Shown: positions 3,305 to 39,313, numbered from the stretch's first letter. The stretch: DNA of 64,000 bases from Pseudomonadota bacterium (GCA_018902545.1 JAHIQM010000004.1:124882-188881), one strand, 5' to 3'. Numbers and translations are program-made. Notes: generated by a model from the letters alone, not told the origin.

Positions 3305-4282
3305 ATGCTGCTGCCAATCATTGCCATCGTTTTCGGCCTGCTTATGCTTGTGTGGAGCGCGGACCGCTTCATCGATGGCGCATCCGCCACCGCTCGCCAT
3401 TACCACATGCCCCCCCTGCTCATCGGCATGGTCATCGTCGGATTCGGCACATCCGCTCCCGAAATGGTGGTTTCGGCCCTGGCCTCCATGCAGGGCAACC
3501 CAGGCATTGCCGTGGGGAACGCTTATGGCTCCAACATCACGAACATAGCGCTCATCCTGGGCGTGACCGCGATGATGAGGCCGATGGCGGTGCATTCACG
3601 CGTGCTGCGCATGGAACTGCCGATGCTCACCGGCATAACGCTGTTGGCGGGCTATCAACTGCTGGATGACGAGATCTCGCGTCTTGATGCCGTAATCCTG
3701 CTCTTGGTCTTCGCGACGCTCATGTTCTGGACGATCCGTCAAGGAATGCGCAAGAAGACAGACGCGCTTGGTATTGAAATCGAGCAGGAAATGGCGGACG
3801 GCGTGATGCCGCTGCGAAAGGCGGTGTTCTGGCTGGTTGTCGGACTGTGTCTGCTCGTAGCCAGTTCACGGATTCTGGTGTGGGGAGCCGTGGAAATCGC
3901 CCACGCCATGGGAGTCAGCGACCTGATCATCGGTTTGACCATCGTGGCGCTCGGCACCTCGCTGCCGGAGCTGGCTTCTTCTATCCTTGCCGCCCGCAAA
4001 GGCGAACACGACATCGCCCTGGGCAACATCCTTGGGTCCAACCTGTTCAATACCCTGGCGGTAGTCGGGATCGCCGGGAGCATTTCTCCCATGACGGTAG
4101 CCCCGGAAGTCTTCTCGCGCGACATCATGACCATGACGGTCTTGACCGCGTCACTGTTCATCTTCGGCTATGGCTTTCGCAAGCCGGGATCAGGCAGGAT
4201 CAACCGCTTCGAGGGAACGCTCCTGCTGGCCGGCTACATCGGATACAACGCCTACCTGGCGCGCAGCGCCTTTGCCGGGTGA
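3305..4282 (+). CDS. Ca2+/Na+ antiporter (CaCA, YrbG-like), paralog 1
   Basis: Two alpha repeats GFGTSAPE and ALGTSLPE; GNAYGSNITN and GNILGSNLFN. Confidence 0.92.
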   Translation: MLLPIIAIVFGLLMLVWSADRFIDGASATARHYHMPPLLIGMVIVGFGTSAPEMVVSALASMQGNPGIAVGNAYGSNITNIALILGVTAMMRPMAVHSRVLRMELPMLTGITLLAGYQLLDDEISRLDAVILLLVFATLMFWTIRQGMRKKTDALGIEIEQEMADGVMPLRKAVFWLVVGLCLLVASSRILVWGAVEIAHAMGVSDLIIGLTIVALGTSLPELASSILAARKGEHDIALGNILGSNLFNTLAVVGIAGSISPMTVAPEVFSRDIMTMTVLTASLFIFGYGFRKPGSGRINRFEGTLLLAGYIGYNAYLARSAFAG

Positions 4283-4439
4283 TGGCGGAAACCCGCTGCC
4301 GGAGACAATTTCCGGCTCCCGTGCGCCATACGGAACAAAGCTGTGACCTGAACTCACACCGACTGGAACTCGCCCGGTGACGAACCTTGGGAACATAGCC
4401 CAAGCGGCTCAGCACGAGCCCGGTCAGGTGCCGGGCTCC

Positions 4440-4638
4440 GCCGGCTTCGTCATAGATGCCGTACAGCTTGCCGGCATTGCCGCCACCGTCGGAGAGCACA
4501 GGGAACGGCACGGTTTTGGCCGTGATCATTTTGACAACTCGTCATCGGCCCACATCTTGTGTACAAACATGCTATCTGTGCTCATAGACAGGGCCTGTAC
4601 CCCATCTTGGAGAATTCATCATGCTTCTCGGCGACCTC
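4440..4638 (-). pseudogene. Internal fragment of a PrxU-type (AhpC/TSA) peroxiredoxin, two frameshifts
   Basis: Reconstructed EVAEKHDEFSKMG/VQALSMSTDSMFVHKMWADDELSK/MITAKTVPFPVLSDGGGNAGKLYGIYDEAGG; catalytic N-terminus absent. Confidence 0.7.
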
Positions 4639-4743
4639 AACATTTTGCAAATGATTTATTCCAAATAATCTGAAATATGCATGGATTAATGCAGACAGTT
4701 CCCGCGCTGAGCAAAGGTCACAAATGAATTTAGGAGAAAATGA

Positions 4744-6075
4744 ATGGATATCGCTCTATTAGCATTCCTCATTGTACTCAACGGCGTGTTCGCCATGTCG
4801 GAGATAGCCCTAGTGACAGCGCGGAAAAGCCGCCTTCAGCGAATGGCTGATGACGGCGACAAGTCCGCTGTTGTCGCCATGCGTCTGGGGGAAGACCCCA
4901 CGCAATTTCTCTCCACTGTCCAAATCGGGATCACCGCCATCGGCATCATGAACGGCATCGTGGGTGAAGCTGCGCTGGCTGGCCCTCTTGCCGGCGTGCT
5001 CACCCAACTTGGCCTTGACGGACAAACCAGTTCGATAACGGCAACCACCCTTGTCGTAGTGGTCATCACATACTTTACCATTGTTGTTGGCGAGTTGGTG
5101 CCGAAAAGAATTGGCCAATTCCATGCGGAGGGCATCGCAACTTTTATGGCCAAACCAATCTCGTTGCTGGCCGCCATATCACGCCCGTTTGTCTTCCTGC
5201 TCTCCATTTCCACTGACGGTCTGTTGCGACTTCTGGGGAAAAAGGAATTGGGCAGCGCCAACCTCACGGAAGAAGATATCCACTCCATGCTGGCCGAAGG
5301 ATCGCAAGCGGGGCTGATTGAAAAGCAAGAGCATGAAATAATGCGCAATGTGTTCCGTCTGGATGATCGTCAAATCGCATCGCTGATGACGCCACGTAGC
5401 GAAATTATCTATCTTGACATAGACAAACCTTTGGAAAGCAGTCTGGAAAATCTGATGAATTCTGACCATTCAAGATATCCGGTTTGCCGTGGCGGATTAC
5501 ACGAAACTATTGGGATCATTACCGCAAAGAGATTGCTCAAACAACGTATCAGAGGTGAATCAAACAGCATTCAAGACTATCTCCAGCCCGCTATTTTTGT
5601 GCCGGAAACTCTTACAGGAATAAAATTGCTGGAGCAATTCCGCGAATCGGGCGTTCAGATGGTTTTTGTCATAGACGAATATGGAGAAATATTGGGTCTC
5701 ATTACACTTCAGGATGTTATTGAAGTGCTCACAGGAGAGTTCAAACCACGCGACCCTGAAGATGTATGGGGTGTTCAGCGCCAAGATGGGTCATGGATTC
5801 TTGACGGCCTCATTCCTATCCCAGAACTCAAGGATCGACTCAATTTGAAAACCGTGCCCGAAGAGCACAAAGCACGGTACAACACGTTGAGCGGCATGAT
5901 GATGTGGCTTATCGGCAGCGTTCCTCGCACGTGTGATGTGGCCGAGTGGGAAGGATGGAGGCTTGAAGTCATCGATCTGGACGGCAACAGGGTCGACAAG
6001 GTTCTAGCCAGCAGTTTAAAAAATTCAGAAACTCATAGTGAAGCATTGAAACCTGAACAAAAAGAATGCACTTAA
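4744..6075 (+). CDS. HlyC/CorC family transporter (CNNM-CBS-CorC domains)
   Basis: LNGVFAMSEIALV, STVQIGIT, VGELVPK, HSRYPV, DEYGEILGLITLQD motifs. Confidence 0.92.
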   Translation: MDIALLAFLIVLNGVFAMSEIALVTARKSRLQRMADDGDKSAVVAMRLGEDPTQFLSTVQIGITAIGIMNGIVGEAALAGPLAGVLTQLGLDGQTSSITATTLVVVVITYFTIVVGELVPKRIGQFHAEGIATFMAKPISLLAAISRPFVFLLSISTDGLLRLLGKKELGSANLTEEDIHSMLAEGSQAGLIEKQEHEIMRNVFRLDDRQIASLMTPRSEIIYLDIDKPLESSLENLMNSDHSRYPVCRGGLHETIGIITAKRLLKQRIRGESNSIQDYLQPAIFVPETLTGIKLLEQFRESGVQMVFVIDEYGEILGLITLQDVIEVLTGEFKPRDPEDVWGVQRQDGSWILDGLIPIPELKDRLNLKTVPEEHKARYNTLSGMMMWLIGSVPRTCDVAEWEGWRLEVIDLDGNRVDKVLASSLKNSETHSEALKPEQKECT

Positions 6076-6084
6076 TATATCATT

Positions 6085-6705
6085 TTATTTTTTGAAGTAT
6101 TTTCTTTCATAAGCCATGCAAGCCAAGGCGAGAAGCAAGAGGATAAGACCAAGTACAACGACTATTGCACGAGTTCCAAGCCATTGAATGAAAAAGAACG
6201 AAACAGCTATGGCGCCGGAAATGCTTCCCAAAGTCGAGATTGCATAAACACGACCAGCAGTTCGGCCTATTTCATCCAGTCCAGTGGCGCTCAACTTGAT
6301 CACGAAAGGAGAAACCATCCCCATGAGCACCGACGGCACCAAGAAAAACAGCATGCTGATCAGGAGCACGGAAAACCGAAATTCAAGACCCAGATCCGCA
6401 ATGTACTTGCCGACCGGCAGATAGACTAGCGGAAGGACCAGAATGCAAACCGCAGCAGACGCCAGTATCTTGGCCAGCACCACCAGGCTCGGACGTTTGT
6501 CAGCCTGGATGCCTCCGAGCCAGTAGCCGATACTGAGGGCCAGCAGAAAGACGCTGATCAGGCTTCCCCAGACATAAACTGAATTTCCGAAATAAGGGGC
6601 CAGTATCCGACTGGCTACAATTTCCAGCCCAAGCAATACTCCACCGGACAGAAAAGCCACGCTGTAGGCGAGGAGATCAAGGGGACGTGGCATGTTATTT
6701 CTCAT
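6085..6705 (-). CDS. Membrane protein matching the transmembrane half of fused MFS/spermidine-synthase proteins
   Basis: GLEIVASRILAPYFGNSVYVWGSLISVFL and GRVYAISTLGSISG motifs. Confidence 0.8.
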   Translation of the reverse strand: MRNNMPRPLDLLAYSVAFLSGGVLLGLEIVASRILAPYFGNSVYVWGSLISVFLLALSIGYWLGGIQADKRPSLVVLAKILASAAVCILVLPLVYLPVGKYIADLGLEFRFSVLLISMLFFLVPSVLMGMVSPFVIKLSATGLDEIGRTAGRVYAISTLGSISGAIAVSFFFIQWLGTRAIVVVLGLILLLLALACMAYERKYFKK

Positions 6706-7603
6706 CTTTCAAAAGGTTTACCGGCGCGTGATCATCGGTCAAAATTTTCGTACTGGCAGGCCAAGTCGGATTTGACTCGAAAAGGTTGTCGAACATACCC
6801 TTCAAATCGAGACGTTCCGGCTTGCGCGCGACTTCCAACTCCACGATCCTGCTACGGACCTCCTCGGGAGAGGGCAGGTTGCTTGGCGCGGCCACAATAA
6901 TTCTGTTTGTCGACCACTTGCCTATATAATGATGAAAACCTCCGAAAACCGCGTGGTATGTTGCCGATTCACGATCGGCAAGGGCCTGATTGGTCCAGGT
7001 GTTTGAGCAGACTACGCCGCCCGGCGAGAGCCGCTCACGGACAATCTCCAGAAACTCGCGCGTAGTCAGATGGAAAGGAATATAGCCACCATGATAGGCG
7101 TCGAGTAAAATCACATCAAACTGCTCTGTCGTGCGTCGCAGCCAGCGACGGGCATCCTCCACCACAAGCTTCATCTTTGCGTCTTCCGCATAACCGAAAT
7201 ACTGCCTCGCCATTGCTACGATCTCGGGGTCGAATTCAACATTCGTGATTTCCGCATCGGGATAGATCATCCTGAGAGTGCGAGTGACAGTTCCGCCCCC
7301 AAGTCCTACCACGAGAATTTTTTTCGGCGCATCCACATAGCCCGACACCAGCATCATCATTCCCGTGTACTCATAAACATGTCGATACGGATCATTCAGA
7401 TCCATGGCACTCGACCTGTCCAACAGCGACCCAACATGCATCCTACGTATTCCATTAGCCTCAGAGATATAAATAGTCTGATACGGAGATTCCTTCTCAT
7501 GAATAATATCACCAGATGTCGGCAGCAGATACAAAGAAACAATTGATACTAAAAAAATAATTGCAACAAAAAATAAAACAAATCGCGTCAAATATTTTTT
7601 CAT
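6695..7603 (-). CDS. Spermidine synthase-like SAM-dependent transferase with N-terminal membrane anchor
   Basis: ESPYQTIYI, VVGLGGG, VEFDP, FDVILLDAY and ILTDDHAPV motifs. Confidence 0.85.
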   Translation of the reverse strand: MKKYLTRFVLFFVAIIFLVSIVSLYLLPTSGDIIHEKESPYQTIYISEANGIRRMHVGSLLDRSSAMDLNDPYRHVYEYTGMMMLVSGYVDAPKKILVVGLGGGTVTRTLRMIYPDAEITNVEFDPEIVAMARQYFGYAEDAKMKLVVEDARRWLRRTTEQFDVILLDAYHGGYIPFHLTTREFLEIVRERLSPGGVVCSNTWTNQALADRESATYHAVFGGFHHYIGKWSTNRIIVAAPSNLPSPEEVRSRIVELEVARKPERLDLKGMFDNLFESNPTWPASTKILTDDHAPVNLLKDEK

Positions 7604-7737
7604 CTCACACCATTTTAAATATCAAAGTTGTTCTGCGGCAAACGATGGGTAAGTATTCTTTCGTACGACAATTTAACACTTGGAACTGAAGAAGGATTCT
7701 TGATGTCCTCATCCTGAAAGTCCTGCCATTGCCCCTT

Positions 7738-7793
7738 TTTGACTTTCGAAGTGGTAAACGCGTTGCGCTCCCATGTCCAGCGAACCTGTCACC
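7738..7793. repeat. ~56-bp dispersed repeat, copy A (copy B at 46124-46180)
   Basis: Shared blocks tttgactttc, tggtaaacgcgttgc, cccatgtccagcgaacct in the same orientation. Confidence 0.75.
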
Positions 7794-7824
7794 AAGCCGC
7801 GTAGTCTGGCCGAACCGGACACAG

Positions 7825-8919
7825 TCAACATACTTGAAAGTCGGGCTCCGCGTCTGCGTTGACAAAAACGTGCATCAGATGTCCCGGAACATGCAGAGCG
7901 ACCGTCTCACCCTCCGGAAACGCCGAAACGCACGGAACCCTGGCATGAAGGTGCACGTCGTTTCCCGTCGATCTGTCCGGCACTTGCAGGTGAACCAGGG
8001 TGGCTCCAGGCAGGAGCCGCGTGGCCAGGACCTTTGCCGCAACCACCTGGCCAGTGCCAAGGGAGGTGCAGGAGGTTGAGACCTGCACTGCGTCGGGCCT
8101 GAACATCAGGGTCACGCGAGCGCCGTCCGGCAGATTTCCGACGTCGACCCCGCCAAGCACGGTCTCTACGCGGCCCGCGCTCACCGTTCCGTAGAGCGTG
8201 TTCACTTCGCTGAAAAAAGTGGCCACAAAAGGCGTGGACGGACGCGAATACAGCTCCACCGGAGTCCCGGTCTGCACCACCCGGCCTTCACGCAGCAGCA
8301 CGATCCGGTCGCCCATGAACATGGCCTCCTCGGGATCGTGCGTGACCATGACGGTGGCAACCCCGCTTTCTTTGAGCACATGCAGTGTCTGATCCCTGAT
8401 CTGGACCCGCAAACGCGCGTCCAGGCTGGAAAAGGGCTCATCGAGGAGCATGATGCGCGGGTCCGGGGCCAAAGCCCGGGCCAGGGCCACGCGCTGCTGC
8501 TGGCCTCCGGACAGCTCGTGCGGGTAGACCCCAGCGTGATCCTGCATGTTCACCCGGCCCAATGCGGCGAGAGCCTTGGAGCGTCGCAACGCCGGATCCT
8601 TCATGCCGACCAGCCCGAACATGGCGTTTTCGAGCACCGTAAGATGCGGAAAAAGCGCCAGATCCTGAAAGACGAACCCGATGCCGCGCTGCTCTGGCAA
8701 GAGCTGCTGACGGCCGTCGGCCATAATCCGCCCATCAAGGAGGATGCGCCCGGACTGGACCTCCTCAAGCCCGGCGATAAGCCGCAGCAGGGTTGTCTTC
8801 CCGCACCCCGAAGGCCCGAGAAGGCAGAGCACCTCCCCGGGATGCACTTCAAGACTGATGTTGTGCAGGACGGTCTTGGTCCCGAAATGATGTTCTATTT
8901 TTTCAATTAAAAGAGACAT
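7825..8919 (-). CDS. fbpC: Fe3+ ABC transporter ATP-binding subunit (FbpC/AfuC-like)
   Basis: GPSGCGKT, LSGGQQQR, LLDEPF; operon with permease and binding protein. Confidence 0.88.
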   Translation of the reverse strand: MSLLIEKIEHHFGTKTVLHNISLEVHPGEVLCLLGPSGCGKTTLLRLIAGLEEVQSGRILLDGRIMADGRQQLLPEQRGIGFVFQDLALFPHLTVLENAMFGLVGMKDPALRRSKALAALGRVNMQDHAGVYPHELSGGQQQRVALARALAPDPRIMLLDEPFSSLDARLRVQIRDQTLHVLKESGVATVMVTHDPEEAMFMGDRIVLLREGRVVQTGTPVELYSRPSTPFVATFFSEVNTLYGTVSAGRVETVLGGVDVGNLPDGARVTLMFRPDAVQVSTSCTSLGTGQVVAAKVLATRLLPGATLVHLQVPDRSTGNDVHLHARVPCVSAFPEGETVALHVPGHLMHVFVNADAEPDFQVC

Positions 8920-16860: not shown

Positions 16861-16867
16861 TGTACTT

Positions 16868-16990
16868 CAGCATTGCTGAGTTCCGCCCAGGGCGGAAGCG
16901 GGGGACCCAATTCATTGGGGCGAATCGCATACGCGTAGGGCACCTTTCGGCCCGAGCCCGTCAGCTAACCCCGTAAGCATCGAAAGGAGA
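16868..16990 (+). ncRNA. c-di-AMP riboswitch (ydaO/yuaA family)
   Basis: gctgag, gcgggggaccca, tggggcgaat, gtagggcacc, cccgagcccgtcagctaaccccgtaagc; pseudoknot cctttcg (16943-16949) with cgaaagg (16981-16987). Confidence 0.9.
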
Positions 16991-17047
16991 CCTCCCTTCG
17001 GGGTGAGGCCTCCATACGGTCTACACCTCTTTTTTTGTGGAGGGTTT

Positions 17048-33205: not shown

Positions 33206-33611
33206 GATATGCAACGCTGATCGCTACATTTCTGTTCAACTGTTTTGGCCTGAGGCCAGTGAAACACGAACCCATGGCCTCCGGCGTGACCTGACCCCGC
33301 CTTCTGCATACACAGGCCCAAGATGGCCTCTGGCGTGACCTGCCTCGTCATATGTGGCGGTTATGTTGGATCTGGCGAATTGATTAGAGGACTCCCTCTG
33401 CTCGTGCCACTCTGCCTTTTCCGTTTAGTCTCTTATAATAAATATGTTGTGATCATAAACGCCTGCGACCATCTTTCGGCACGGATGTTGCCAAAACGCT
33501 CGGGAGTCTGGACCGTATTCTTTTGGTCGCTGAAATGCTCAGTTTCAACAAAATGGCGCAGAGTTATGACCATATAACTGCCAGTGAGAGCTGGTTAAAA
33601 GGAGAGATCGT

Positions 33612-33809
33612 ATGGACAAAAATATTCGAAAAGAAAATTTCAAGGAAAACAAAGGCGGAATGAAAGATAATTGGGCAATGAGGGATGATGAGCTTGCAGA
33701 ATTTGACGGAGAACTGGAAAAGATGTCTGATATTTTGCAAGAATATATAAATTTGAAGTATGATGTGGATGACACTACACTATTTTTGATTAACACAAAT
33801 ATTAAATGA
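33612..33809 (+). CDS. Small acidic hypothetical protein
   Basis: 65 aa; AGGAGA RBS; AT-rich. Confidence 0.5.
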   Translation: MDKNIRKENFKENKGGMKDNWAMRDDELAEFDGELEKMSDILQEYINLKYDVDDTTLFLINTNIK

Positions 33810-33919
33810 GCCTTGTCACTGGAATAAACAATTGGGATCACAACTGATTCCTTCTTTCCGGTCCGCATTTGGATGATTAACGTTAAGGCGCTGTAATCCG
33901 TAGGGTGGATGAGCGTCTC

Positions 33920-34010: not shown

Positions 34011-34283
34011 GTAGCGCAAACCACGCAAGAAATGCGGGCGCTCATGCCGCAGCACGTGGGCAGATCCCTTCTCCCAAGCCTCCCCAAGCCAAAGCCGCGC
34101 AAAATAGTAAAGACTCCTGCTTCTATCGCAACTCAGACACCTCCGTGAAAGATGCGGATGCCTGAGCGCTTACAGATAATAGGCCTCCCCGCTTTTCCCA
34201 CATCGCCATCCTCACCAGCGACATTTGTTCGGCGTAGTCCACCCCAAGCCTTCTCTCGGCGGCCCGCTCGCTGAACTACCGAT

Positions 34284-34402
34284 CCATTCGAAATTTGGTT
34301 CGGATGCACCTCAAAATGCTGTGCCAACTCGGCAAACATTATGTCCCCAGACATCGCTGCTTATGCCACCATCGCCATGATCAATTCCGCTTGTAGGTGT
34401 CC
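34284..34402 (-). mobile_element. IS3-family OrfA (HTH) fragment
   Basis: MVA*AAMSGDIMFAELAQHFEVHPNQIS with an internal stop. Confidence 0.6.
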
Positions 34403-34439
34403 AGGATAGTAAAGTATCCGCGCTAGGGTTTGTGCAAAT

Positions 34440-34760
34440 TTCTGGAAAATTTATTTCGAAATCCACACATGTATAATTTCTTAATTTAAAAATTAGTTTA
34501 TGATTATCAACAATGACATAAATTTTTTATAATTTTAATATTCAACTTCGATATTTATATTTATAACATGTTTTAAATTCAATTTATATAAATTATAAAT
34601 ATTTACTTTACATTAAATAAATAATGCCCTAATCATAAATAATGATAATAAGAGAAAATAATTATTCAAAACTTTTTTTTAAAATCAATTAACAATGTTT
34701 TTGCAAATCGACACTTACTCAGAACAGCGACAAATTATTAATTATTATTAATTTCAGATG
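34440..34760. other. Extremely AT-rich intergenic region upstream of the corrinoid operon
   Basis: Long A/T tracts, sharp contrast to flanks. Confidence 0.75.
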
Positions 34761-34884
34761 CTTAGAGCTAATGTAGCCAAAGAGCAGATACTTGCACAGT
34801 TGAACGTTGCACACCTGCGTATTGCCAAACTTGAAGCTCAGCACTTGGGATGGGAGTTAGATCAGAAGCGGTAATTCCGATGCT

Positions 34885-35031
34885 CTGAATACGCAGGTCC
34901 CCATCATCCCCATGACCGGTGACCGTGAGAGATTTCTTGAAGCTGGCATGAACGACTACATCGCTAAGCCGGTGCAGGTCGTGGAACTCAAGAAGGCGCT
35001 GAAGCGGGTGTTGGATGTAAAGCGCAAATGA
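34885..35031 (+). pseudogene. Relic 3' end of a receiver domain (hybrid kinase tail)
   Basis: LNTQVPIIPMTGDRERFLEAGMNDYIAKPVQVVELKKALKRVLDVKRK*; no upstream frame. Confidence 0.75.
34921..35001 (+). repeat. 81-bp perfect direct repeat, left copy
   Basis: Identical base for base to 38893-38973. Confidence 0.92.
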
Positions 35032-35094: not shown

Positions 35095-35757
35095 ATGGAG
35101 AGATATTGTATGTATGACCCCTCAGACTCCATGCTAGACACCGCGTTTTGGGGTGCGCTGATGCGCTCGAACAGGCACGACGCAGAGCAAATCATGCGAC
35201 AATTGTTGGTGCAGACCTCACCGCCGGGCAGCGCTGAGAAACTCGTCGTCACTGCGCTTGAGCGCATTGGTGCGGACTGGGAATCAGGCCGGGCGGCCCT
35301 CTCGCAAGTGTATATGAGCGGAAGGATCTGCGAAGAGCTCATGGCGTTGATCTTTCCGAGAACCCCTGATGGGAACAACGTTTCTGGCCGGTGCGCCATC
35401 GTATTGCTGAATGACTATCACACCCTTGGCAAGCGTATCGTGCTTTCGGCACTGCGAGCTTCCGGCTTTTCCATACAGGATTGGGGACAGATGACACAGG
35501 AGCAACTCGTGGCCAAAGCCCTTGAAAGTGATGTCGAAGTGCTGCTGATTTCCACGCTCATGCTTGCCTCTGCCCTCAAGGTCAAGGATCTCAAAACTGA
35601 ACTTGATGCGAAGGGGTTCAACGGCAAGCTGTTGGTAGGCGGAGCCCCTTTCCGGCTGGACAAGAGGCTCTGGAAAGACGTCGGGGCGGATGCCACTGCC
35701 GACAATGCCATGGACTCGATACGTGTCCTTTCATCGCTACTTGGGAGGCAATCATGA
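35095..35757 (+). CDS. Cobalamin-binding (corrinoid) protein, MtaC/MtbC-like
   Basis: Cap domain IGADWESGRAALSQVY; DYHTLG (DxHxxG), ISTLM (SxL) and LVGG motifs; alternative start 35110. Confidence 0.9.
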   Translation: MERYCMYDPSDSMLDTAFWGALMRSNRHDAEQIMRQLLVQTSPPGSAEKLVVTALERIGADWESGRAALSQVYMSGRICEELMALIFPRTPDGNNVSGRCAIVLLNDYHTLGKRIVLSALRASGFSIQDWGQMTQEQLVAKALESDVEVLLISTLMLASALKVKDLKTELDAKGFNGKLLVGGAPFRLDKRLWKDVGADATADNAMDSIRVLSSLLGRQS

Positions 35758-36800
35758 AAGCCATGTCCTCAATGGAACGCGTGCTGACAACACTTGGGCA
35801 TCGCGAGCCAGACCGTGTTCCGCTGTTCCTGCTGCTCACCATGCACGGGGCCAAAGAGCTTGGGCTTGGTATCAAGGAATACTTCGGCAACGTCGAACAC
35901 GTTGTCGAGGGCCAGTTGCGGATGCTGAAAAAATACAGGCACGACTGTCTGTATCCCTTCTTTTATGCACCCATCGAAGTCGAGGCCTGGGGAGGTGAGG
36001 TCATTTACGCTGACGATGGCCCGCCCAATTCAGGCGCGCCCGTGATCACCTCGGCCGAGAAAGTCGCCAGCCTCTCCCCACCGGATGTGTACCGCACCCC
36101 CTGCCTGCTCAAGGTTCTCGACGTCATCAGCGGGCTCAAGGCCAACGTCGGCGGCACAGTTCCGATCATTGGGGTGGTAATGTCACCCTTTTCCCTGCCG
36201 GTGATGCAAATGGGCTTCGGAGCCTATTTTGAGTTGATGCACGAGCAGCCTGATTTTTTTTGGAAATTGATGCGCGTGAACGAGGCGTTCTGCTGTGACT
36301 GGGCCACCGCGCAGCTCAAGGCCGGTGCCACGGCAATCTGCTATTTTGATCCGGTTTCATCTCCGACGATCATTCCGAGGGAGCATTACCTCGAAACTGG
36401 CTTCGTCATTGCCAAAAGAACCATTGCCTCCATCCAAGGACCGGTTGCTACTCATCTCGCCTCCGGGCGTTGTATGGGCATCTCTGATCTCTTGCCGCAG
36501 ACAGGAACTGCTGTGGTGGGCGTGAGCATGGAGGAGGATTTGGACGTGTTGAAGAGCGCTTTTGCGGGCAAGGCCACCATTATGGGCAACCTGAATGGAA
36601 TAGCTATGCGAAACTGGAACGCTGAGGATGCGGAAAAGGCCGTGAAGAAGGCTGTTTCTCTCGCCGCCAGAGGCGGTGGATTCATCCTTAGCGACAACCA
36701 TGGGGAAATCCCCTGGCAAGTTCCCGAAGACTCTCTATTGGCCATTGGTGAGGCTGTGCGAGAATGGGGACGCTATTCTCTTGGAGGCGATCATGACTGA
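35754..36800 (+). CDS. UroD/MtaA-CmuA family protein (methylcobalamin methyltransferase-like)
   Basis: MSSMERVLTTLGHREPDRVP, IIGVVMSPFSL, IMGNL, GGGFILS; ATGA overlap with the corrinoid gene. Confidence 0.88.
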   Translation: MKAMSSMERVLTTLGHREPDRVPLFLLLTMHGAKELGLGIKEYFGNVEHVVEGQLRMLKKYRHDCLYPFFYAPIEVEAWGGEVIYADDGPPNSGAPVITSAEKVASLSPPDVYRTPCLLKVLDVISGLKANVGGTVPIIGVVMSPFSLPVMQMGFGAYFELMHEQPDFFWKLMRVNEAFCCDWATAQLKAGATAICYFDPVSSPTIIPREHYLETGFVIAKRTIASIQGPVATHLASGRCMGISDLLPQTGTAVVGVSMEEDLDVLKSAFAGKATIMGNLNGIAMRNWNAEDAEKAVKKAVSLAARGGGFILSDNHGEIPWQVPEDSLLAIGEAVREWGRYSLGGDHD

Positions 36801-39012
36801 CCGTTTGTCTCTGGTAGTTTGCGATAACTTTACAGAAGAGGTCCGGGCGGTCGTCGAGACCTTGGGTTTCCTGGACGTTGATGTACTGTCCGTACCCTGC
36901 TCTTGCCATCTTCCACTGACTACTGCTCGTAAGCGGTTTGGCGATGCCTTGGGCTCGGCCATTAACGCGCCCAGACGCGACAGGATGCAGGTCCTCGGAC
37001 GACTGCAGACCATGCAGGCGGACCTGGTCGGAAGCCCTGATCCGGCAAAGGAACGGAGCGCCACTCTGCAATGCTTTGAACTGGTCGCCCCCGCCATTTT
37101 TGTCGAACACTTGCAGTGCGGGGGCGCGTTCACTGTATCGCCCGGCTGGCTCCGCAAATGGCGTTCGGTCCTGCGAGATTGGGAAGCTGATCAGAAGACA
37201 GCGCGGGAGATGTTTCAGGAAACAGCCAGGAAGATCATCCTGTTGGACACGTTCGGCAGGGCCGAGGATGTCGCACACCTGCACGCGTTCGCCGGCCATG
37301 TCGGGCTTCCGGCGGAAGTAGTTCCGGTTGGGCTGAATTACTTAGAGAGTAAACTGGAGAGCACTCTCCTTCGCTGGCGGAATAACATTCTTCAGGACAA
37401 CCTGAGCGATGCTTATAAGAGCATGAGTGACACCCAGATGGTCATGGAGATGGTCAAAGAGATTGCCCAGACCCTTGACGAAGAGAACATCCAGGAAAAG
37501 ATCCGTCGGCTCCTTGAGATGTTAATGGCCCCAAAGTCCGTACGCTTCAAGGAGCTTGCGCAGACAGTCAACACGCAGGAAGAAGGTGGGATTCTATCGC
37601 CAAAGCCGCCAACGCACATAGCCTTTTGGGACGAGACCCTCGCGGGCTTCCGCATTCCCATCCTGCACCAGGGTCTGGTATTGGGCTTGGTCGAGTGCGA
37701 AAAGGTCATGTTTCCAGAGCACAAACGGCACTATTCCCAGATTCTTGATAACATTTCCGAAGTGTTCGGGTTGGCGCTCAACAATTCAAAGGCCTACATG
37801 GAACTTAAGCTTCGGGCCACTGATCTGTCTCAGTTGCGCGAACAGGCCGAAGAGGCAAACAGAACCAAGAGCGCTTTCCTGGCAACTATGAGCCATGAGA
37901 TCAGAACCCCAATGAATGGGATTCTGGGGATGCTGCAACTCCTCCAAACCACTCCCTTGGACGATGATCAACAAGAGTACGTCGATATGTCGACGATCTC
38001 AACGATGAGTCTCCTCAATATTATCAATGATATCCTGGATATTTCCAAGATTGAGGCCGGGAAGATCGATATCGTTGAAAAAGAGTTTGCGTTGTCAGAA
38101 CTCCTTCAGTCGATGCGCGTGCTCTTCAGAGGCCAGATGATCAAGCAGCATAACAAGCTCTTACTTGACGTTGCCGATGGAGTCCCAAGAAAAATCATTG
38201 CCGACGCCAGCCGCATTCGGCAGGTGTTGTTCAATCTCATCGGCAACGCAATGAAATTTACGGAGCATGGCGTTGTATCGGTCAATATTAAGACGGAAAA
38301 GGTTGCGGGTCAGCAGGACAAGATGCGCCTCTGTTTTTCCGTCGCCGATACCGGCATCGGCATCCCGGAGGATCAGCTTGGAAGGTTGTTCACGCCGTTC
38401 ACACAGGTTGAAAACTGCGCAACCTCGAAGCATCAGGGCACGGGTCTGGGACTATCTATTGTCAAGCGTATAGTCGAACTCATGGGCGGCGCGGTGTCCT
38501 TGGAGAGCAAGCTTGGCAAGGGAACGACATTGCAGTTTGATATACTGGTGGGGATGCCTTCAGCCATTATGCCACCGTCCCCTGCCACGCCGAAAGCTAG
38601 CACCGCGCAGGAGCGATCACACTTCCTGAAGGTTCTCCTGGTCGAGGATGACCCGACAAGCCGCATATTTGCCAAACGTATACTGGAAAACTATGGGGCT
38701 GAAGTCATCGCGGCCGACAATGGGGAGGAGGCCCTGGAGGCCTTGGCCAAGGAGGGTTTTCACTGCGTTCTGATGGACATCCAGATGCCCGTCATGGACG
38801 GCATCACAGCTACGAAGACCATTAGGGCCATGAGAGATGAAAACATCCGAAGTATCCCCATCATCGCCATGACCGCTTACACGATGAATGGGGACCGTGA
38901 GAGATTTCTTGAAGCTGGCATGAACGACTACATCGCTAAGCCGGTGCAGGTCGTGGAACTCAAGAAGGCGCTGGAGCGGGTAGCCGAGAAGCTGGGCTGT
39001 GATGGACAGTAG
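36793..39012 (+). CDS. Hybrid histidine kinase: DUF1638-like N-terminus, GAF-like, HisKA, HATPase, receiver
   Basis: VVCDNF, VPCSCH, VSPGWLRKW, KIILLDT; MSHEIRTPMNG; NLIGNAMKFT, DTGIGI, GTGLGL; VEDD, DIQMP; GGAGG RBS, 8-nt overlap. Confidence 0.9.
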   Translation: MTDRLSLVVCDNFTEEVRAVVETLGFLDVDVLSVPCSCHLPLTTARKRFGDALGSAINAPRRDRMQVLGRLQTMQADLVGSPDPAKERSATLQCFELVAPAIFVEHLQCGGAFTVSPGWLRKWRSVLRDWEADQKTAREMFQETARKIILLDTFGRAEDVAHLHAFAGHVGLPAEVVPVGLNYLESKLESTLLRWRNNILQDNLSDAYKSMSDTQMVMEMVKEIAQTLDEENIQEKIRRLLEMLMAPKSVRFKELAQTVNTQEEGGILSPKPPTHIAFWDETLAGFRIPILHQGLVLGLVECEKVMFPEHKRHYSQILDNISEVFGLALNNSKAYMELKLRATDLSQLREQAEEANRTKSAFLATMSHEIRTPMNGILGMLQLLQTTPLDDDQQEYVDMSTISTMSLLNIINDILDISKIEAGKIDIVEKEFALSELLQSMRVLFRGQMIKQHNKLLLDVADGVPRKIIADASRIRQVLFNLIGNAMKFTEHGVVSVNIKTEKVAGQQDKMRLCFSVADTGIGIPEDQLGRLFTPFTQVENCATSKHQGTGLGLSIVKRIVELMGGAVSLESKLGKGTTLQFDILVGMPSAIMPPSPATPKASTAQERSHFLKVLLVEDDPTSRIFAKRILENYGAEVIAADNGEEALEALAKEGFHCVLMDIQMPVMDGITATKTIRAMRDENIRSIPIIAMTAYTMNGDRERFLEAGMNDYIAKPVQVVELKKALERVAEKLGCDGQ
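38893..38973 (+). repeat. 81-bp perfect direct repeat, right copy (inside kinase receiver domain)
   Basis: Identical to 34921-35001. Confidence 0.92.
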
Positions 39013-39170: not shown

Positions 39171-39295
39171 CCTCCAAATACGAAAGCCCCGGAGCTTGTG
39201 GCTCCAGGGCTTTCGTTCGTTGTTGTGTTTACCGGCTAGGCTATGCCGAGCAGATACCAGTAGGGGTCGAAGCTTCGTTCGACCAATCGAGCAAG
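39171..39295. repeat. ~125-bp direct repeat, left copy: fic 3' end plus terminator
   Basis: Matches 45299-45425 with about 7 differences; contains the aaagccccggagc...gctccagggcttt hairpin. Confidence 0.9.
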
Positions 39296-39313
39296 CTGTT
39301 GGACGAAGGGACC
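39236..39313 (-). pseudogene. Relic last ~25 codons of a Fic paralog
   Basis: GPFVQQLARLVERSFDPYWYLLGIA* versus APFAEQLARLVERSFDPYWYLLGIA* of the intact gene. Confidence 0.82.

Follow-up and report, generated by a model that had tools for sequence, protein, structure and literature searches.

Three overlapping genes in a 64,000-nt stretch of DNA from a Pseudomonadota bacterium (GCA_018902545.1 JAHIQM010000004.1:124882-188881; contig C3, 124882-188881, of a 3.7-Mb genome; hereafter the window) probably encode a corrinoid-based sensor. They lie at 35095-39012 on the plus strand and specify a corrinoid protein, a URO-D/MtaA-like protein and a soluble hybrid histidine kinase of 739 aa (36793-39012, counted from the ATG that is preceded by GGAGG). 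A constant N-terminal module joined to swapped outputs, fusion and fission of the putative reader domain DUF1638, translational coupling and strict synteny across phyla together form the pattern of a sensory input, and we propose that the three genes make up one cytoplasmic sensory input device assembled from corrinoid methyl-transfer parts. The cassette would thus be a new kind of sensory input, most likely an undescribed route from the chemical state of a B12 cofactor to a cellular signal. A preliminary description of this DNA, made from the sequence alone, had suggested that methyl-transfer chemistry was turned to signalling here; that suggestion finds its support in comparative genomics, and we infer that the quantity read is the state of the cobalt.

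The same description reported three coupled genes with ATGA and 8-nt overlaps, and both overlaps are confirmed. The URO-D-like ATG at 35754 overlaps the TGA of the corrinoid gene by 4 nt (junction GGGAGGcaatcATGA), and 8 nt of the URO-D-like gene (35754-36800) are shared with the kinase gene, whose ATG at 36793 has GGAGG 5 nt upstream. A ribosome-binding site is present at each of the two overlaps, and overlapping gene junctions recur in relatives of the cassette.

Conservation of the cassette and exchange of its outputs

A first search from the kinase N-terminus returned 13 relatives, including Desulfonatronum lacustre and one DUF1638-GGDEF protein, and every genomic context examined for them showed overlapping genes in the order B12-binding, URO-D, DUF1638 within otherwise unrelated flanks. 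Among 201 genomes of the order, 28 from 11 of 48 genera gave a profile match, and 20 loci were annotated with local hidden Markov models. In nineteen of these 20 the trio stands in this order and a signalling output comes after it, within the reach of the contigs, the exception being L045. DUF1638-GAF is fused to HisKA-HATPase-REC in five loci (the window and four others) and to GGDEF in six, including L045; in fifteen loci, mostly from Desulfomicrobium genomes, a separate DUF1638 of ~192 aa is encoded by a gene that overlaps the gene for a following GAF-containing hybrid kinase. With the URO-D-like protein as the starting point, all three sampled named metagenome-assembled genomes (MAGs; Chloroflexi, SAR324 and Magnetococcales) proved to have the cassette, seven more signalling-type loci came from a sample of 401 genomes of the phylum, and four more contexts, including one with a SpoIIE (SpoIIE/PP2C) output, contain the trio. 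In all, 33 loci carry the trio in the same order amid unrelated flanks, the Chloroflexi, SAR324 and Magnetococcales MAGs among them, which settles in favour of conservation a matter that the preliminary description had raised. Mean identities among fused-type members are 0.58 (URO-D-like protein), 0.44 (corrinoid protein) and 0.29 (DUF1638).

A wider profile search of 1.84 billion representatives (clusters at 50% identity) recovered 1,289 proteins at E<=1e-3 and 338 at E<=1e-30, and most of the best 150 relatives are proteins of 400-1,176 aa with DUF1638 at the N-terminus. Among 159 representatives the outputs are HisKA (89), GGDEF (18) and others comprising HisKA_2/HWE, PAS arrays, PAS-GAF-HD-GYP and SpoIIE, so that the survey for alternative outputs proposed earlier yielded GGDEF, SpoIIE/PP2C, HWE kinases and HD-GYP. 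HisKA kinase, GGDEF cyclase and SpoIIE phosphatase outputs were seen with the trio gene order; HWE kinase and HD-GYP outputs are known from protein sequences alone. A constant N-terminal module with swapped C-terminal outputs is the pattern expected of an input domain. The same arrangement bears on a reversed direction of control, in which the kinase, receiver or cyclase would govern DUF1638 as a corrinoid chaperone or reactivation factor and DUF1638 would be the output: an N-terminal module that leads through a GAF domain and a signalling helix into varied catalytic outputs has the architecture of a sensor input. We know of no case in which GGDEF, SpoIIE or HD-GYP domains act as inputs. Genetic evidence tying stand-alone DUF1638 to B12 reactivation (PMC5764234, PMC12478193) would fit the reversed direction, as would the conserved Cys cluster of the domain, a possible redox or metal centre, and we consider this explanation very improbable.

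Correlation of the trees of the three proteins (mirror-tree, r 0.58-0.93) is confounded by phylogeny and was not used as evidence of contact. Damaged copies of the cassette also occur: an IS3-family element truncates the corrinoid and URO-D genes in L006/L007 (3496-4820), and the URO-D gene of L064 (3954-4994) is in two frames. At L096 (G288:C38, 4064-6793), DUF1638, a corrinoid protein and a PocR-sensor AraC-type transcription factor are encoded in one operon, whose neighbours are genes for a URO-D protein and a TRAP transporter. From this arrangement it seems that DUF1638 and a corrinoid protein may also be able to feed a DNA-binding regulator.

The corrinoid protein

The first protein has the architecture of a B12-binding_2 cap followed by a B12-binding Rossmann domain. 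It keeps the DxHxxG motif, as had been pointed out (D107, H109 and G112), and DxHxxG, SxL and GG are invariant in 22/22 aligned cassette corrinoid proteins; the retention of DxHxxG in all 22 indicates that cofactor ligation is preserved. Against TIGR02370, which covers the methyltransferase-cognate corrinoid proteins of MtaC/MtbC/MtgC type, it scores 66.7 bits (cut-off 215.3), and by sequence it is a divergent subfamily of that group.

Light was among the signals first considered, and a CarH- or AerR-like light sensor working by Co-C photolysis would share the B12-binding_2 and B12-binding architecture. The NCBIfam CarH model matches weakly (29 bits, 5.5e-7, against a cut-off of 400). The published light-response signature of cobalamin photoreceptors comprises GxxW, EH, GxxH and GxxxP (PMC11796333), and in the window protein it is incomplete: GADW fits GxxW, but EH is replaced by V-Y nine positions past the Trp and NDYH lacks the G of GxxH. 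A CarH-like photoreceptor was rejected on these motif grounds. In addition, the hosts are strict anaerobes of dark sediments, and photoreception has no need for invariant URO-D-like and DUF1638 partners. We find a light sensor extremely improbable.

The URO-D-like protein

The second protein scores higher with the MtaA/CmuA models TIGR01463 (83.4 bits, cut-off 235.4) and NF004889 (92.9, cut-off 244) than with the hemE model TIGR01464 (44.5 bits, cut-off 303), and it reaches 63-69 bits with the MtaA and MtbA equivalogs (cut-offs 400-600); its best sequence matches in the PDB are UroD. On alignment to MtaA (4ay7), the segments with its Zn ligands, 'HiCg' and 'pgCg', correspond to 'H234-L-A236-S' and 'N-H316-G', in agreement with the earlier observation that HLA and SDNH stand in place of the Zn-binding HxC and distal Cys, and the Zn-type His-x-Cys...Cys is lost in all 24 cassette homologues aligned. 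On alignment to UroD structures, the catalytic-Asp segment 'fsDil' corresponds to 'fyApi', and RQAGR is absent, with LTMHGAK instead. We accordingly rejected a true MtaA (Zn site lost, model scores far under the cut-offs) and a true UroD (catalytic Asp replaced by Ala, no RQAGR, hemE score far under its cut-off). As judged by its residues, the protein is neither a Zn-dependent MtaA nor a decarboxylase, and loss of the Zn site implies that its small-molecule partner would not be a Zn-activated thiol.

We assessed conservation in the best 120 cluster representatives, which are 63-89% identical to the window protein and have a mean pairwise identity of 68%; identity between phyla is about 66%. 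At least 97% conservation is found at 104 of the 348 positions, and H234, A236 and H316 are present in 120/120. A barrel so nearly invariant speaks for a genuine active or ligand site rather than a decayed enzyme. Relatives include MAGs of Chloroflexi, SAR324, Magnetococcales, Smithellaceae and Candidatus Parabeggiatoa, and are annotated in the databases as 'uroporphyrinogen decarboxylase family protein' or 'MtbA', the latter of which we think is wrong.

The DUF1638-GAF module of the kinase

The preliminary description likened the kinase N-terminus to DUF1638 (PF07796), and this has been upheld by Pfam and profile matches, by alignment to stand-alone DUF1638 and by structure prediction, which speak against an ordinary sensor fold. 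The window kinase scores 26.0 bits (E 9.6e-6) in hmmscan, borderline against the cut-off of 27, and 28.2 bits, over the cut-off, in a whole-genome search; family members score 35-60 bits. A profile of the fused family finds the stand-alone DUF1638 of the same genome (95 bits to Pfam) at 1.5e-9, and fused and stand-alone forms share C10, E16, C94, W119, W123 and LDT. Of the Cys motifs singled out initially, C10 (VVCDNF), C38 (PCSCH) and C94 (QCF) are present in 95-100% of 132 relatives, but the Cys of LQCGG is not conserved. By position, Cys occurs in these 132 fused relatives at 10 in 100%, at 38 in 95%, at ~72 in 71% and at 94 in 98%, and stand-alone forms retain C10, H39, C72 and C94. It is reasonable to guess that this cluster forms a metal or Fe-S site with four ligands.

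An AlphaFold2 (AF2) model of residues 1-345, built on a 25-row alignment (predicted local distance difference test score, pLDDT, 85.2), begins with an alpha/beta domain (1-180), from which a long helix leads to a GAF domain (about 230-305); a further helix continues into HisKA. The GAF domain between DUF1638 and HisKA had been overlooked in the initial domain layout. Foldseek comparison of the two-domain model with the PDB gave GAF structures as top matches (6oap, PDE2/5/6, Lcd1 and KdpD) and nothing convincing for the first part; the conserved GAF signature is GF, P..Y and NAR. DUF1638 modelled alone (pLDDT 89.4, predicted template modelling score 0.87) had no PDB match at E<=1e-3, with a best TM-score of 0.41, and searching the PDB with the N-terminal sequence of the kinase returned nothing meaningful. 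As modelled, DUF1638 is not a PAS, GAF or Cache variant and has no solved structural relative, and fold comparison gave no functional analogy for it. At the other end of the pathway, the window kinase has no histidine phosphotransfer (HPt) domain and there is no response regulator among its neighbours; its Desulfonatronum orthologues, unlike the window protein, carry an HPt domain.

Genetic studies connect stand-alone DUF1638 proteins with corrinoid proteins. PGA1_c13340 of Phaeobacter inhibens (PMC5764234), where the partner belongs to a split methionine synthase, and SPO2162 of Ruegeria pomeroyi (PMC12478193) are each encoded beside a separate corrinoid protein, and by genetics each is required for that protein to function. 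By analogy, direct contact between DUF1638 and the corrinoid protein of the cassette is the simplest assumption.

The split copy and candidate metabolic partners

Contig C12 of the same genome carries a second, split cassette (L010, 3738-8041) in which all genes overlap and a stand-alone DUF1638 of 191 aa precedes a GAF-PAS-HisKA-HATPase-REC kinase. The fused and split forms in one genome make a Rosetta-stone case. By exact-sequence look-up the genome belongs to the genus Desulfomicrobium. The split cassette is also present in the cultured type strain Desulfomicrobium baculatum DSM 4028, in D. macestii and in strain ZS1; the fused form was found in none of the sampled Desulfomicrobium genomes other than that of the window. 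Genes for PAS-GGDEF-EAL and GGDEF proteins precede the split cassette of L010.

The first two genes might instead be an ordinary metabolic methyl-transfer pair, with the kinase as a co-encoded regulator or an unrelated neighbour. The models that match the pair best are of methanogen type (TIGR02370, TIGR01463 and NF004889), the genome has one RamA-like activase, away from the cassette, that could make Co(I), and in Phaeobacter a stand-alone DUF1638 serves a metabolic corrinoid protein (PMC5764234). Every model score is however far under its cut-off, and the Zn site for thiol activation is missing. A catabolic methyltransferase elsewhere in the genome, raised at the outset as a possible true partner, did not emerge from the gene inventory: we found no MttB-family gene, and the two URO-D and two DUF1638 genes of the genome all fall within the fused and split cassettes, both of which end in a kinase. 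Eight B12-binding matches were counted, six of them outside the two cassettes, including one in an 809-aa open frame that we take to be MetH-like. The statement that no methyltransferase, activator or methyl acceptor lies near the locus holds for the flanks, where no methyl-acceptor genes were seen; the RamA-like activase exists elsewhere. RamA occurs in 193 of the 201 genomes of the order regardless of the cassette, so that its co-occurrence is uninformative either way. The pair moreover always precedes a DUF1638 signalling protein, including those with GGDEF and SpoIIE outputs, which do not regulate operons directly. Without MttB, with URO-D and DUF1638 confined to the cassettes and with outputs that are not operon regulators, a catabolic role is little supported, and we hold it to be improbable.

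The main rival to a sensor of cobalt state is a sensor of cobamide or cobalt supply, which would report apo against holo protein or the type of cobamide, with the URO-D-like protein and DUF1638 loading or recognizing the cofactor and the output tuning uptake or B12 metabolism. Some contexts are suggestive: in two unrelated lineages NikR lies directly 5' of the cassette, in L004 (262-2565), together with a TonB-dependent receptor, and in L099 (509-3422), together with CbiM/CbiQ/ABC; methylmalonyl-CoA mutase and MeaB are downstream in L098, and CysG and MTHFR accompany L100. The URO-D fold binds tetrapyrroles in true UroD, which also provides the best PDB matches. On the other hand, most contexts, that of the window included, are without cobalt or B12 neighbours, riboswitches are the usual sensors of B12 supply, the substrate-binding residues of UroD are lacking, and three proteins with a near-invariant enzyme-like partner exceed what ligand sensing needs. 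Supply sensing is in our view unlikely.

Proposed mechanism and its difficulties

In the sensor of cobalt state that we favour, the 220-aa corrinoid protein would hold a cobamide with His109 as lower ligand, and the URO-D/MtaA-like TIM barrel would dock on the upper face of the cofactor and set its chemical state. It would most likely do so by adding or removing a methyl group on cobalt via a small-molecule donor or acceptor rather than a Zn-activated thiol; the cofactor would also change state if Co(I) were adventitiously oxidized to Co(II). Adjacency and translational coupling join the URO-D-like gene to that of its putative cognate corrinoid protein, to or from which the enzyme may transfer methyl groups. 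DUF1638-GAF at the kinase N-terminus would bind the corrinoid protein in one state, and the change would be relayed via the GAF domain and signalling helix to the HisKA/HATPase core. The core would phosphorylate its own receiver domain and then, via an HPt protein and a response regulator, neither encoded at the locus, alter cell behaviour. Candidate signals are a methyl donor, redox or B12 status.

That a URO-D-like protein sets the cobalt state and DUF1638-GAF reads it is, going by the genes and their residues, an evenly balanced proposition. We are more hesitant, and lean somewhat towards doubt, over its general form, in which an enzymatically written mark (methyl-cobalt or cobalt oxidation state) would serve as an intracellular signal in several phyla, with a zinc-less URO-D writer or eraser and a DUF1638 and GAF reader. 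The URO-D enzyme would then respond to a one-carbon compound or to redox, DUF1638 would probably have a Cys-ligated metal centre, and the output would be phosphorylation, cyclic di-GMP turnover or protein dephosphorylation.

Several points weigh against such a mechanism. Protein contacts, cofactor binding and enzyme activity are extrapolated from genes for every member. The URO-D-like protein, having neither the MtaA Zn site nor the UroD Asp and RQAGR, could be an adaptor without catalytic activity; three split-type homologues lack H316 and one fused-type homologue lacks H234, so neither His is universally required across the wider family. The window DUF1638 is without the Cys at position 72 that 71% of its relatives possess. 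In L045 (G046:C187, 5450-6934), which encodes DUF1638-GAF-GGDEF, neither a corrinoid nor a URO-D gene lies within 13 kb; no other fused locus examined is an orphan. Elsewhere in the phylum, stand-alone DUF1638 genes with weak scores adjoin unrelated genes. Lastly, a receiver-domain remnant gives the window copy an unusual 5' flank.

Flanking sequence

Coordinates within the window and those of the split cassette are collected in Table 1. The cassette is flanked by genes for an MMPL exporter, a ROS/MucR regulator, a Tim44-like protein, a CorC fragment, a CaCA antiporter, an AI-2E transporter, HtpX and Fic, none of which is tied to methyl transfer. At the locus itself, an Rfam scan gave neither a cobalamin riboswitch nor any other RNA element; elsewhere it gave one tRNA and a complete c-di-AMP (ydaO/yuaA) riboswitch at window 16864-16994 (95.5 bits).

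The leader contains a stretch of 80% A+T (~34420-34770) that is also kept in the closest relative, and the best sigma-70-like match, TTATCA-18-TATAAT at 34504-34533, is a consensus match only. The receiver-domain remnant reads IRSGNSDALNTQVPIIPMTGDRERFLEAGMNDYIAKPVQVVELKKALKRVLDVKRK* in its open frame; 98 nt of it (34912-35009) match 38884-38981, at the 3' end of the kinase REC domain, with 96% identity, and it is missing at the equivalent position in L060/L061. It looks like the product of a small duplication or illegitimate recombination. Downstream of the kinase, a hairpin (GAAAGCCCCGGAGC-ttgt-GGCTCCAGGGCTTTC, then gttcgttgttgtgttt) resembles a terminator and was not called by a consensus scan. 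The region around it (39171-39300) is 94% identical to a second copy ~6 kb further on (C3:170179-170309). A sequence of ~580 nt at window 33324-33905 is repeated at 72-86% identity on C17, C21, C4 and elsewhere on C3, and also near the cassette in L060/L061 in the opposite orientation; it may be a mobile or repeated element.

Table 1. Features of the cassette and its surroundings (window coordinates unless a contig is named)
Feature	Position	Strand	Basis or remark
Leader/promoter region	34186..34848	+	79% identical over 667 nt to region 5' of corrinoid gene in closest relative L060/L061
Remnant of receiver-domain C-terminus, 56 codons	34861..35031	+	Between leader and corrinoid gene
Corrinoid protein, 220 aa	35095..35757	+	Pfam B12-binding_2 3.5e-7 (aa 18-85), B12-binding 4.5e-16 (aa 103-207)
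DxHxxG, D107-Y-H109-T-L-G112	35413-35430	+	Alignment
URO-D-superfamily MtaA-like protein, 348 aa	35754..36800	+	Pfam PF01208 URO-D 9.8e-52 (aa 6-338)
H234, A236, H316	H234 36453-36455; H316 36699-36701	+	Alignment to MtaA 4ay7
DUF1638 domain, aa 1-198	36793..37386	+	C10, E16, C38, C94, W119, W123 and LLDT conserved
Family-specific GAF domain, aa ~200-335	37390..37797	+	AF2 and Foldseek; long signalling helices either side
HisKA (aa 359-423, H-box SHEIRTP) and HATPase_c (aa 471-583)	37867..38541	+	Pfam 2.4e-21 and 1e-28
Receiver domain (aa 614-727) and stop codon	38632..39012	+	Pfam Response_reg 8e-30
Terminator-like G+C-rich hairpin and T-rich tract	39182..39229	+	~170 nt past kinase stop; read by eye
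Split cassette L010, contig C12	Corrinoid 3738-4424; URO-D-like 4391-5440; DUF1638 5437-6012; kinase 6005-8041		

Comparison with known systems

The established roles of cobalamin are those of enzyme cofactor, riboswitch ligand and light-sensing chromophore. To our knowledge it is not known as a working part of a dark, enzyme-coupled signal-transduction module, and full-text literature searches returned two genetic mentions of DUF1638 only, with no account of the cassette or of DUF1638 as a sensor domain. If our proposal is right, no earlier cobalamin signalling system would have been both non-photic and enzyme-coupled, and the cassette would define a class of sensory input that is new and comprises 1,289 cluster representatives at 50% identity. 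DUF1638, already tied genetically to corrinoid-protein function, would gain a molecular role, as would a conserved zinc-less URO-D branch now labelled uroporphyrinogen decarboxylase or MtbA, and the cassette would point to a signal monitored by anaerobes from Desulfobacterota to Chloroflexi. The window's genome is a handy entry point as it holds the fused and split forms together, the split form being available also in the cultured D. baculatum DSM 4028.

The split methionine synthase that works with a RamA-like protein and DUF1638 resembles the cassette in that DUF1638 is encoded beside a separate corrinoid protein. There, DUF1638 is free and the context is biosynthetic or catabolic, whereas in the cassette it is fused or coupled to GAF signalling proteins and preceded by a special URO-D-like protein. 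The photoreceptors CarH/LitR and AerR/PpaA likewise use protein-bound cobalamin as a sensing cofactor, in the same cap and Rossmann arrangement (PMC4557120, PMC9144470). They sense light via Co-C photolysis and bind DNA or a transcription factor, whereas the cassette has two more, obligatory proteins and kinase, cyclase or phosphatase outputs.

Three-component corrinoid methyltransferases (MtaABC, MtmBC/MtbA and MtsAB of methanogens, the bacterial O-demethylases and CmuA) pair the same small B12-binding_2 and B12-binding protein (DxHxxG, His-on) with a URO-D TIM barrel, and, as in the cassette, their genes are adjacent and co-translated and the RamA-type activase is encoded elsewhere. The cassette differs in having no methyltransferase 1 of MtaB or MttB type, in the replacement of HxC...C by HxA...H and in model scores far under the cut-offs; its third partner is a DUF1638-GAF signalling protein rather than a metabolic enzyme, and the host has no methylotrophic pathway. 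In arrangement, the cassette also recalls the H-NOX/histidine kinase and NosP/NahK systems, in which a separate cofactor protein encoded beside a soluble (hybrid) kinase modulates the kinase by direct binding. H-NOX and NosP employ haem and a diatomic gas, and lack both an enzyme-like third partner and a dedicated reader domain of the DUF1638 kind.

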